Origin: Shigella phage sb3
Direction: 5' to 3' (one strand)
Sequence record: PQ666541
DNA length: 64,000 nt
The translations under genes were made by a program, and so were the position numbers. Each line of letters opens with the position of its first letter. Position 1 is the stretch's first letter. Shown here piece after piece: positions 40,335 to 41,513 of this stretch. A model generated the notes under the pieces. That model was not told the DNA's origin and did not search any database. It saw only the letters and a program-made list of their open reading frames with translations.

Positions 40335-41513
40335 TTAAAAGTATTTTTTAAAACTCATCATAACTTTATCATCAACATCATTATCAATCTGTGCAACAAG
40401 GTAAGATGACAGTTCTACTTCTTGTGGCGCGGATTGAACATTATCAGAATTAAGATATTCACGAATCCAAGGATATGGATGTTTAACCGGAGCGTCGGTA
40501 ATTGGGCATGGAAGACCGCACTGTTTCATACGAGATACAGTTAAGTAATCAATAAAACTCCACATGCTATTTGTATTTAATCCAGGAACATCGCCATCTT
40601 TAAATAAATGAACTGCCCAATCTTTTTCTTGGCGGTTAACTTCCATGAAAATATCAACTGCTTCTTGTTCACACTCTTGAGCAATTTTAACCCATTCATC
40701 GCCATCAGTACCGGATTGAAGTTGACGAATAATATATTGGGTGCCTTTAAGGTGAAGCTGCTCATCACGTGCAATGAACTTCATAATCTTGGCATTACCT
40801 TCCATGATTTCCATGTTCTTATGGAAGTTAAAGGTACATGCAAAAGATACATAAAAACGAATAGCTTCTAAGGCATTAATAACGTGCAAACAGAGGTAAA
40901 GAGATTTCATTAGTGCTCGTTTCCAATACATTTCATGCTCTATGGCTTCTTTAATAGCATCTTCGTCTGCGTTAAATTCTTTCTAGTTCTGTAAATCATC
41001 TTTAGCATTTTCCCATTCACGGGTTTTAGTCAGAACATCATCATAATAGCGACCGATAGATTCAGCACGTTTCATGATAGCTTCATCTAGTACAATCTCA
41101 TCAAATACCTTTGACGGATCAGTATAAAGATTTCGCATGATATGGGTATATGAACGGCTGTGAATAGTTTCACTAAAAGTCCATGTAGCAACCCATGTAT
41201 CAAGACTTGGGTCTGAAATTAATGACATAAGTACAGCAGATGGCGCACGACCCTGAATGCTATCTAGAAGTGATTGATACTTCAGGTTATTAGTAAAAAT
41301 ATCTTGCTGATATTGAGGAAGCTTATTAAATTGTGCAGCATCCATCATTAAGTTTACTTCTTCAGGACGCCAGAAAAATGACAACTGCTTTTCGGTTAAA
41401 TCTTCAAAAACTTTATGACGTTGAATATCATAACGCGCAATACCAAGACCTGAACCGAAGAACATAGGTTCTTTTAAAACATCAACTGGGTTTGTATTAA
41501 AAACTGTGCTCAT
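40335..41513 (-). CDS. nrdB: Ribonucleotide reductase small subunit NrdB, intron-less, with an in-frame TAG
   Basis: 176-aa N-terminal ORF and 198-aa C-terminal ORF lie in the same frame, separated by TAG at 40983-40985 and 17 sense codons; no room for an intron. Confidence 0.85.

Follow-up and report, generated by a model that had tools for sequence, protein, structure and literature searches.

The nrdB gene of phage T4 is interrupted by a group I intron with a defunct I-TevIII, and the same gene is intact, intron-less and 1179 nt long in the relatives JE01, GEP001, RB27, RB14 and pSs-1. In Aeromonas phage Aeh1, the gene for another T4-like reductase subunit, nrdA, is reportedly split by an insertion of mobE (work attributed to Friedrich et al., 2007), and an endonuclease gene lies between two independently translated halves. 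In classical T4 amber (am) mutants, a T-even gene that is intact in other respects contains an in-frame TAG, the result of a single-base change in an isogenic background.

Here we report an analysis of a 64,000-nt stretch of DNA from Shigella phage sb3 (PQ666541; hereafter referred to as the window), in which an intron-less nrdB gene contains an in-frame TAG. The window gene shares its length, its synteny and its catalytic residues with the five intact genes, to which it is 99% identical outside a variable segment (the cassette). By contrast, none of the five has an internal stop, and the window cassette combines two of their allele types and has a register shift of +2. Like Aeh1 nrdA, the window gene is broken at a surface position, but the break is a bare stop, with neither an insert nor a convincing ribosome-binding site. 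It resembles the am mutants in having a TAG in an otherwise intact gene, but differs from them in having two base changes within a shifted tract, together with TAA and TGA stops elsewhere in the window. We consider it very probable that the nrdB TAG is an artefact and that the window is a chimeric consensus scaffolded on pSs-1, rather than the record of a biological amber allele.

The nrdB gene and its predicted product

The gene and its internal stop are located as follows:

40335..41513, minus strand: nrdB, class Ia ribonucleotide reductase beta subunit; 392 codons and a terminal TAA, 1179 nt, intron-less
40983..40985, minus strand: internal TAG of nrdB; codon 177, gene nt 529-531

Translation of the minus strand from 41513 to 40335 revealed a single internal stop, the TAG at 40985..40983, around which the product reads ...TREWENAKDDLQN, then the stop, then KEFNADEDAIKEAIEHEMYWKRALMK... 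The alignment of the gene with hundreds of Tequatrovirus nrdB genes, each of 1179 nt, is free of gaps, and the gene lies in the order td, nrdA.2, nrdA.1, nrdA, nrdB, denA, rnlA, alc, as in RB27, JE01 and pSs-1. These results bear out the earlier note on this DNA, which had described an intron-less nrdB with an in-frame TAG at 40983-40985. That note had also placed a 176-residue and a 198-residue half side by side; the gene of about 392 codons stands, but the two halves are not adjacent, as the 198-residue open reading frame begins at Met195 (ATG 40931), and 17 sense codons separate the TAG from this ATG.

The homology of T4 nrdB to the window stops at gene nt 674/677, where T4 carries about 600 extra nucleotides. 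The window gene is contiguous at gene nt ~675 and lacks the ~600-nt group I intron expected of a T4-type arrangement. The T4 insertion site is downstream of the amber by about 145 nt (48 codons), and the earlier assumption that T4 has its intron at the position of the amber is wrong by this distance.

In a PDB sequence search, the nrdB product matched Escherichia coli R2 over residues 3-388 (E = 4e-126). The equivalents of the E. coli R2 residues D84, E115, H118, Y122, E204, E238 and H241, which comprise the di-iron ligands and the radical tyrosine, are all kept, and the product contains the conserved R2 motifs LLDSIQGR, SETIHSRSYTHI, NALEAIRFY and ARDExLH. Judged by the full-length homology and by these ligands and the tyrosine, the product is predicted to be a bona fide class Ia R2, although the unbroken reading frame expected of such a gene is interrupted by the TAG at codon 177.

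Mosaic structure of the hypervariable cassette

The stop is located in a hypervariable loop cassette of T4-like NrdB (codons ~172-197), which is flanked by the conserved segments ...TREWENAK and K-R-x-LMKSLYLCL... In the window the cassette occupies 40923-41003 (minus strand), and in relatives it is bounded by ...TR(E/Y/L)W(E/Q)NAK and K(R/Y/H)xLM(K/R)(S/A)LYLCL. At least ~25 distinct alleles of the cassette, ranging from ~17 to 44 residues and in many cases mutually unalignable, occur among T4-like phages. The segment aligns to a gapped, poorly conserved loop stretch of E. coli R2, and lies ~85-165 nt upstream of the T4 intron insertion site. This hypervariable cassette is real biology and worth noting. 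Four of its types are:

Type A (JE01, GEP001, HY03): KEFTELAKESPDAVFRLNRAIKQEAEAKRA
Type B (RB27, RB14, PhiZZ30, TH09, sb2, pSs-1): KADIEYQKEINADEDxIxDAIEHExYWKRE
Type C (T4, RB59): KDMVEYYKDQGLILADKDVEQRAKRD
Type D (CHD94UKE2): KEEYEGILSEGWRKDELGKVVEYAKRE

Among ~47 alleles inspected and ~1,120 phage records searched by tblastn, the best match to the window cassette was 84.5%. The gene is instead a mosaic of JE01-type sequence, whose source we call the donor, and pSs-1-type sequence, consisting of the following segments:

40999..41513, minus strand: 5′ flank of nrdB; JE01-type at 29/33 informative sites, with private differences at gene nt 189 and 369, both third positions
40997..40998, minus strand: two bases, TG (gene nt 516-517); identical to the pSs-1 bases there and filling a 2-nt gap in the donor
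40983..40996, minus strand: 14-nt tract ATTTACAGAACTAG (gene nt 518-531); the JE01/GEP001/HY03 allele displaced by +2 nt, which brings TAG into frame
40923..40982, minus strand: 3′ part of the cassette (gene nt 532-591); pSs-1-type (type B), matching pSs-1 at 31/34 sites, JE01 at 2/34 and neither at 1/34
40335..40922, minus strand: 3′ flank of nrdB; JE01-type at 27/28 informative sites, with private differences at gene nt 957 and 1020, both third positions

JE01 is only a proxy for the donor, as the window agrees with pSs-1 at 4/33 informative sites of the 5′ flank. Outside the cassette, the window differs from JE01 at 9 positions, all of them third codon positions, as against 34 differences from RB27; inside it, the 3′ 60 nt are of the pSs-1/TH09 type.

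The register shift is apparent when the codons around the stop are compared:

pSs-1: AAA GCT GAT ATT GAG TAC CAA AAA GAA (K A D I E Y Q K E)
JE01: AAA GAA TTT ACA GAA CTA GCT AAA GAA (K E F T E L A K E)
Window: AAA GAT GAT TTA CAG AAC TAG AAA GAA

Across the stop, the window sequence as written is GATGATTTACAGAACTAGAAAGAATTTAAC. At the TG, pSs-1 reads AAAGCTGAT, the window AAAGATGAT and JE01 AAAGA--AT; MAFFT and pairwise alignments agree in placing one 2-nt gap before the tract and another, corresponding to the CT of the donor, after it. In JE01-type alleles the tract encodes E-F-T-E-L-A. The codon in the register of codon 177 is CAA (Gln) in pSs-1, RB27, TH09 and PhiZZ30, and GCT (Ala) in JE01-type alleles, in which the string C-TAG-CT forms the codons CTA GCT two bases upstream. 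The earlier expectation of Trp or Gln at this position thus holds, as Gln, for the pSs-1-type allele, but the JE01-type alleles have Ala.

Between the window and pSs-1 there are 69 differences in nrdB. JE01 in register accounts for 59, and another five (nt 520, 523, 526, 529 and 531) are accounted for only by JE01 shifted by +2; both of the base changes that convert CAA to TAG belong to these five. Of the five differences left, four are private changes at third codon positions. Gene nt 557, within the cassette, matches neither pSs-1 nor JE01 in register. In a shuffle test, an out-of-register match of at least 10 nt was reached in 66 of 20,000 shuffles. The stop appears to be the Leu-Ala of the donor (CTA GCT) read in the wrong register, rather than a Gln or Trp codon altered by a point mutation, because the tract has slid by two columns with the pSs-1 TG as filler and the CT of JE01 has been lost.

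Three other accounts of the cassette were rejected. A CAG-to-TAG transition is ruled out, as the natural codon in register is CAA and both changed bases lie within the shifted tract. Column-wise blending of two alleles in register fails in the 5′ part of the cassette, where gene nt 520 is T but both parents have A, and the +2 shift is needed. A MobE or I-TevIII target site does not lie behind the cassette junctions, since the nicks made by MobE fall in a conserved 5′ region, and the site of the intron lies ~145 nt downstream.

Collinearity with pSs-1 and other interrupted genes

The whole window aligns to positions 101012-164999 of pSs-1 (NC_025829) as a single block with 96.5% identity and 0 nt unaligned. 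The block contains 2,223 mismatches and 5 gap openings, which sum to 20 nt, and the window ends on the final base of the pSs-1 record. As controls we used RB14 and JE01, natural genomes whose divergence from pSs-1 is comparable to that of the window. Against the same pSs-1 region, RB14 gave 7 blocks, 41 gap openings and 2.3 kb unaligned, and JE01 gave 5 blocks, 72 gap openings and 14.8 kb unaligned. There are 445 mismatches per gap opening in the window, compared with 61 in RB14 and 26 in JE01. Substitutions passed on without indels, and end-to-end collinearity despite divergence, are the pattern of a scaffolded consensus, but five small indels relative to pSs-1 (12, 3, 1, 1 and 3 nt) are present, and the suppression of indels is incomplete.

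The largest of these five carried-over indels is a 12-nt insertion at 10371-10382 (ATTATGATTATG), a tandem duplication of ATTATG located just downstream of the 3′ end of hoc. The hoc gene itself (10945-11538, minus strand) has internal repeats of 306 nt, about 80% identical and offset by 288 nt, which are consistent with its tandem Ig-like domains and are ordinary.

One long segment of the window is indistinguishable from the scaffold:

56476..59889, plus strand: gene 37, nearly whole; 3,414 nt that are 100% identical to pSs-1 against a background 2-4% divergent

Gene 37 is heterogeneous among T4 relatives (PMC2993671), and its identity here is as would be expected if the donor could not be aligned in this region and the scaffold was retained. 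An inference of host range from gene 37 of the window, which encodes the distal tail-fibre adhesin and is normally hypervariable, is unsafe.

The amber in nrdB is not the only in-frame stop of the window. We screened for broken genes by comparing 90 pSs-1 proteins with the window by tblastn, and found 82/90 genes intact under translation table 11 and 8/90 affected, with a total of 11 in-frame stops in seven genes and a frameshift in an eighth. The stops comprise 3 TAG, 4 TAA and 4 TGA, so that the nrdB amber is accompanied by ten stops, of all three kinds, in six other genes. They are confined to naturally variable, locally divergent patches. The affected genes include:

25021..27075, minus strand: alt (ADP-ribosyltransferase); stops TGA 26176-26178, TAA 25960-25962 and TGA 25744-25746
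29878..30541, minus strand: genes 30.3 and 30.4; in 30.3, TGA 30097-30099 replaces Trp79
within 29878..30541, minus strand: gene 30.4; TAG 30533-30535, TAA 30446-30448 and a start codon changed from ATG to ATT
46037..46290, minus strand: homologue of pSs-1 gp247; frame broken by a 1-nt deletion near 46182
46589-46966, minus strand: frd.2; TAG 46907..46909 replaces Tyr20
50659-54528, plus strand: gene 34 (proximal long tail fibre); TAA 51109..51111 at codon 151, at a seam between pSs-1-type and P922-type sequence

The alt gene is a fine mosaic of KMB23-type and pSs-1-type alleles, with 88 parental switches at 414 informative sites in ~1.1 kb and 35 private bases. At every indel, even one between two KMB23-type single-nucleotide polymorphisms (SNPs), its state is that of pSs-1, and its stops at codons 300 and 372 are KMB23-type bases placed in the pSs-1 register. 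At the stop in gene 34 the sequences are as follows:

Window: GTT TAA ATT GTA GCT TCA AAT CAG
pSs-1: GTT TTA ATT GTA GCT CCA GTG CAA
P922: GTT AAA ATA AAT TCT TCA AAT CAG

Read against its two parents, this TAA appears to be a hybrid of TTA (pSs-1) and AAA (P922). Fine alternation of two alleles combined with the indel state of the reference, as in a scaffolded consensus, is thus found in alt, in the nrdB cassette and in gene 34.

The genes nrdB, alt, 30.3, 30.4 and frd.2 are dispensable, and each of these, taken alone, could be a real pseudogene; the argument from non-viability hangs on gene 34, which encodes a tail-fibre protein and is counted with the core morphogenesis genes (PMC2993671). 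The whole set of stops, with all three kinds represented and the essential gene 34 affected, is incompatible with a clonal, propagating phage. A phage with a reassigned stop codon would have many TAGs, also in essential genes, and a cognate tRNA; the window has 3 TAG against 4 TAA and 4 TGA. No tRNA genes were found in the 64-kb window, and a suppressor tRNA encoded by the phage is thereby ruled out within it. The other oddities of the window, namely the premature stops, the seemingly novel alleles of alt, 30.3, 30.4, frd.2 and gene 34, and the gene 37 identical to pSs-1, are suspect.

Origin of the internal stop

The mosaic structure, the register shift, its recurrence at other stops and the collinearity are all read directly from the alignments, and from them we infer the procedure that built the chimera. 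Candidate procedures are reference-guided assembly, a SNP-only consensus, polishing with mixed reads, a collapsed mixed T4-like population or some other in-silico blending. In each case, substitutions of a donor phage would have been written onto pSs-1 coordinates wherever the local alignment was good, most donor indels would have been left behind, and pSs-1 bases would have been kept where the donor was too divergent. In nrdB the donor would have the JE01-type cassette and pSs-1 has the RB27-type cassette. The local alignment would have moved the donor ATTTACAGAACTAG rightwards by two bases, the TG of pSs-1 would have stayed in the columns passed over, and with the loss of the extra CT of the donor after the TAG, Leu-Ala (C-TAG-CT) would have become a stop. 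The natural 5′ parts of type A and type B cassettes match at 8/16 positions at a 2-nt offset and at 5/18 in register (hand count). This similarity may be the reason an aligner picked the +2 placement, and the two cassette families may be related through an old compensated frameshift.

The donor looks like a real, distinct Tequatrovirus, because, where it differs privately in conserved regions, the changes are synonymous and at third positions. The real phage probably carries an intact JE01-type (type A) NrdB, in which the amber position is occupied by Ala; the artefact model expects the real cassette to be GCTAAAGAATTTACAGAACTAGCTAAAGAATCTCCTGATGC, or a mixture of it with the pSs-1 type. Of the two origins proposed in the earlier note, an amber allele or pseudogene and a substitution error, the error comes closest, but not as a single-base change, as TAG differs from CAA at two bases; the allele or pseudogene is undermined by the ten further stops and by the scaffold signature that extends over the whole window.

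Searches of public collections support the view that this allele does not circulate, independently of the alignments. Neither nrdB fragment had an exact match among ~15 billion public proteins and their contigs, a collection in which the exact window NrdA is present on 75 contigs and the exact DenA on 46. A 26-base cassette pattern with the stop codon wildcarded had no match in IMG/VR or in GTDB genomes, and none of the ~1,120 phage nrdB records had a matching cassette. A word-indexed protein search with the cassette returned only 8 weak matches and was uninformative. Shorter cassette patterns hit 125 loci, none of them with nrdB, and were set aside as chance matches.

A recent, real nonsense allele, tolerated while the host enzyme supplies dNDPs, is in our judgement unlikely. 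Such an event would have to be very recent, which fits a gene that is otherwise pristine, with its iron and radical ligands kept and its private changes synonymous and in third positions, and nrdA and nrdB have been classed as auxiliary-metabolism 'Quasicore' genes, short of strictly essential (PMC2993671). However, a classical amber is a single-base change in an isogenic gene, whereas this TAG is two differences away from CAA and belongs to a 14-nt stretch copied out of register, with a shift of +2, from another allele. Nor is TAG the only kind of premature stop, as TAA and TGA occur in alt, 30.3, 30.4 and gene 34. The ten other stops in six further genes, the essential gene 34 among them, the window-wide scaffold signature and the absence of the allele from every public collection searched speak against this reading as well.

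We regard as quite improbable a mosaic formed in vivo, in which template switching or short-patch repair between cassette alleles in a mixed infection produced a defective genome that was then sequenced faithfully. T4-like phages recombine intensely, gene conversion driven by homing endonucleases acts in nrdB (PMC2790892), and the cassette is within ~85-165 nt of the intron insertion site, on its upstream side. MobE nicks, however, map away from the cassette, in the conserved 5′ region of nrdB (PMC2790892). Homologous exchange moves indels together with neighbouring SNPs, which is never the case in the alt gene of the window, and 88 switches in ~1.1 kb are far finer than known recombination tracts. 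Moreover, a genome with the ochre codon in gene 34 could not have been propagated.

It is highly improbable that the stop is real and the gene functional, whether through suppression or read-through of the amber, or because two pieces, residues 1-176 and the product of a restart at Met195, make up the protein in the manner of Aeh1 nrdA. A supE host would insert Gln at the amber. The location of the stop is favourable to this idea: it lies in a surface loop, variable in length (~17-44 residues) and gapped relative to E. coli R2, where a break would leave a structurally complete set of helices on either side; 54 nt further downstream there is an in-frame ATG, and the base after the TAG is A. However, TAA and TGA stops are also present, beyond the reach of any amber-specific mechanism, and rescue by a supE host or a suppressor tRNA is therefore inapplicable; tRNA genes are absent from the window in any case. 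The restart fares no better. Met195 (ATG 40931) is preceded only by a 3-nt GAG at a distance of 6 nt, and since intact alleles such as those of PhiZZ30 and TH09 have this methionine too, it did not evolve as a restart. Genes in pieces have an endonuclease gene or spacer between them and a second start with its own ribosome-binding site; window nrdB contains no inserted DNA, no endonuclease gene or spacer lies between its pieces, and no relative has this arrangement. That the window is a faithful copy of a replicating phage, with an amber produced by template switching in vivo and a NrdB made by read-through or by fragments 1-176 and 195-392 reassembling around the di-iron site, has a very slight probability, and if true it would be a second, insertion-free 'genes-in-pieces' reductase among T4-like phages.

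Under the chimeric-consensus explanation, the nrdB amber is no real biological feature, and the truth is most likely an ordinary, intact JE01-type NrdB. Its biological weight is small, and it serves mainly to caution against taking the provenance of the whole window at face value.

At least one related public record, that of Shigella phage sb4, bears the same recognizable signature of reference-scaffolded chimerism. Positions 101000-150999 of sb4 (PQ666542.1) align to pSs-1 as one 50-kb block with 96.8% identity, and 25/75 of its genes contain in-frame stops, including those for DNA ligase, gp24, gp26, gp27, gp28, gp48 and gp59. Thus, sb4 shares with the window the one-block collinearity with pSs-1 at ~96-97% identity and the stops across conserved or essential genes. 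The two are nevertheless distinct sequences (95.7% identical), and sb4 is the worse hit, with 25/75 genes affected as against 8/90. Three quantities provide a reusable diagnostic for flagging such records: the ratio of mismatches to gap openings relative to the nearest reference, the run length between parental switches, and the state of indels compared with that of neighbouring SNPs. The accessions of sb1, sb2 and sb4 are PQ666539, PQ666540 and PQ666542, respectively.
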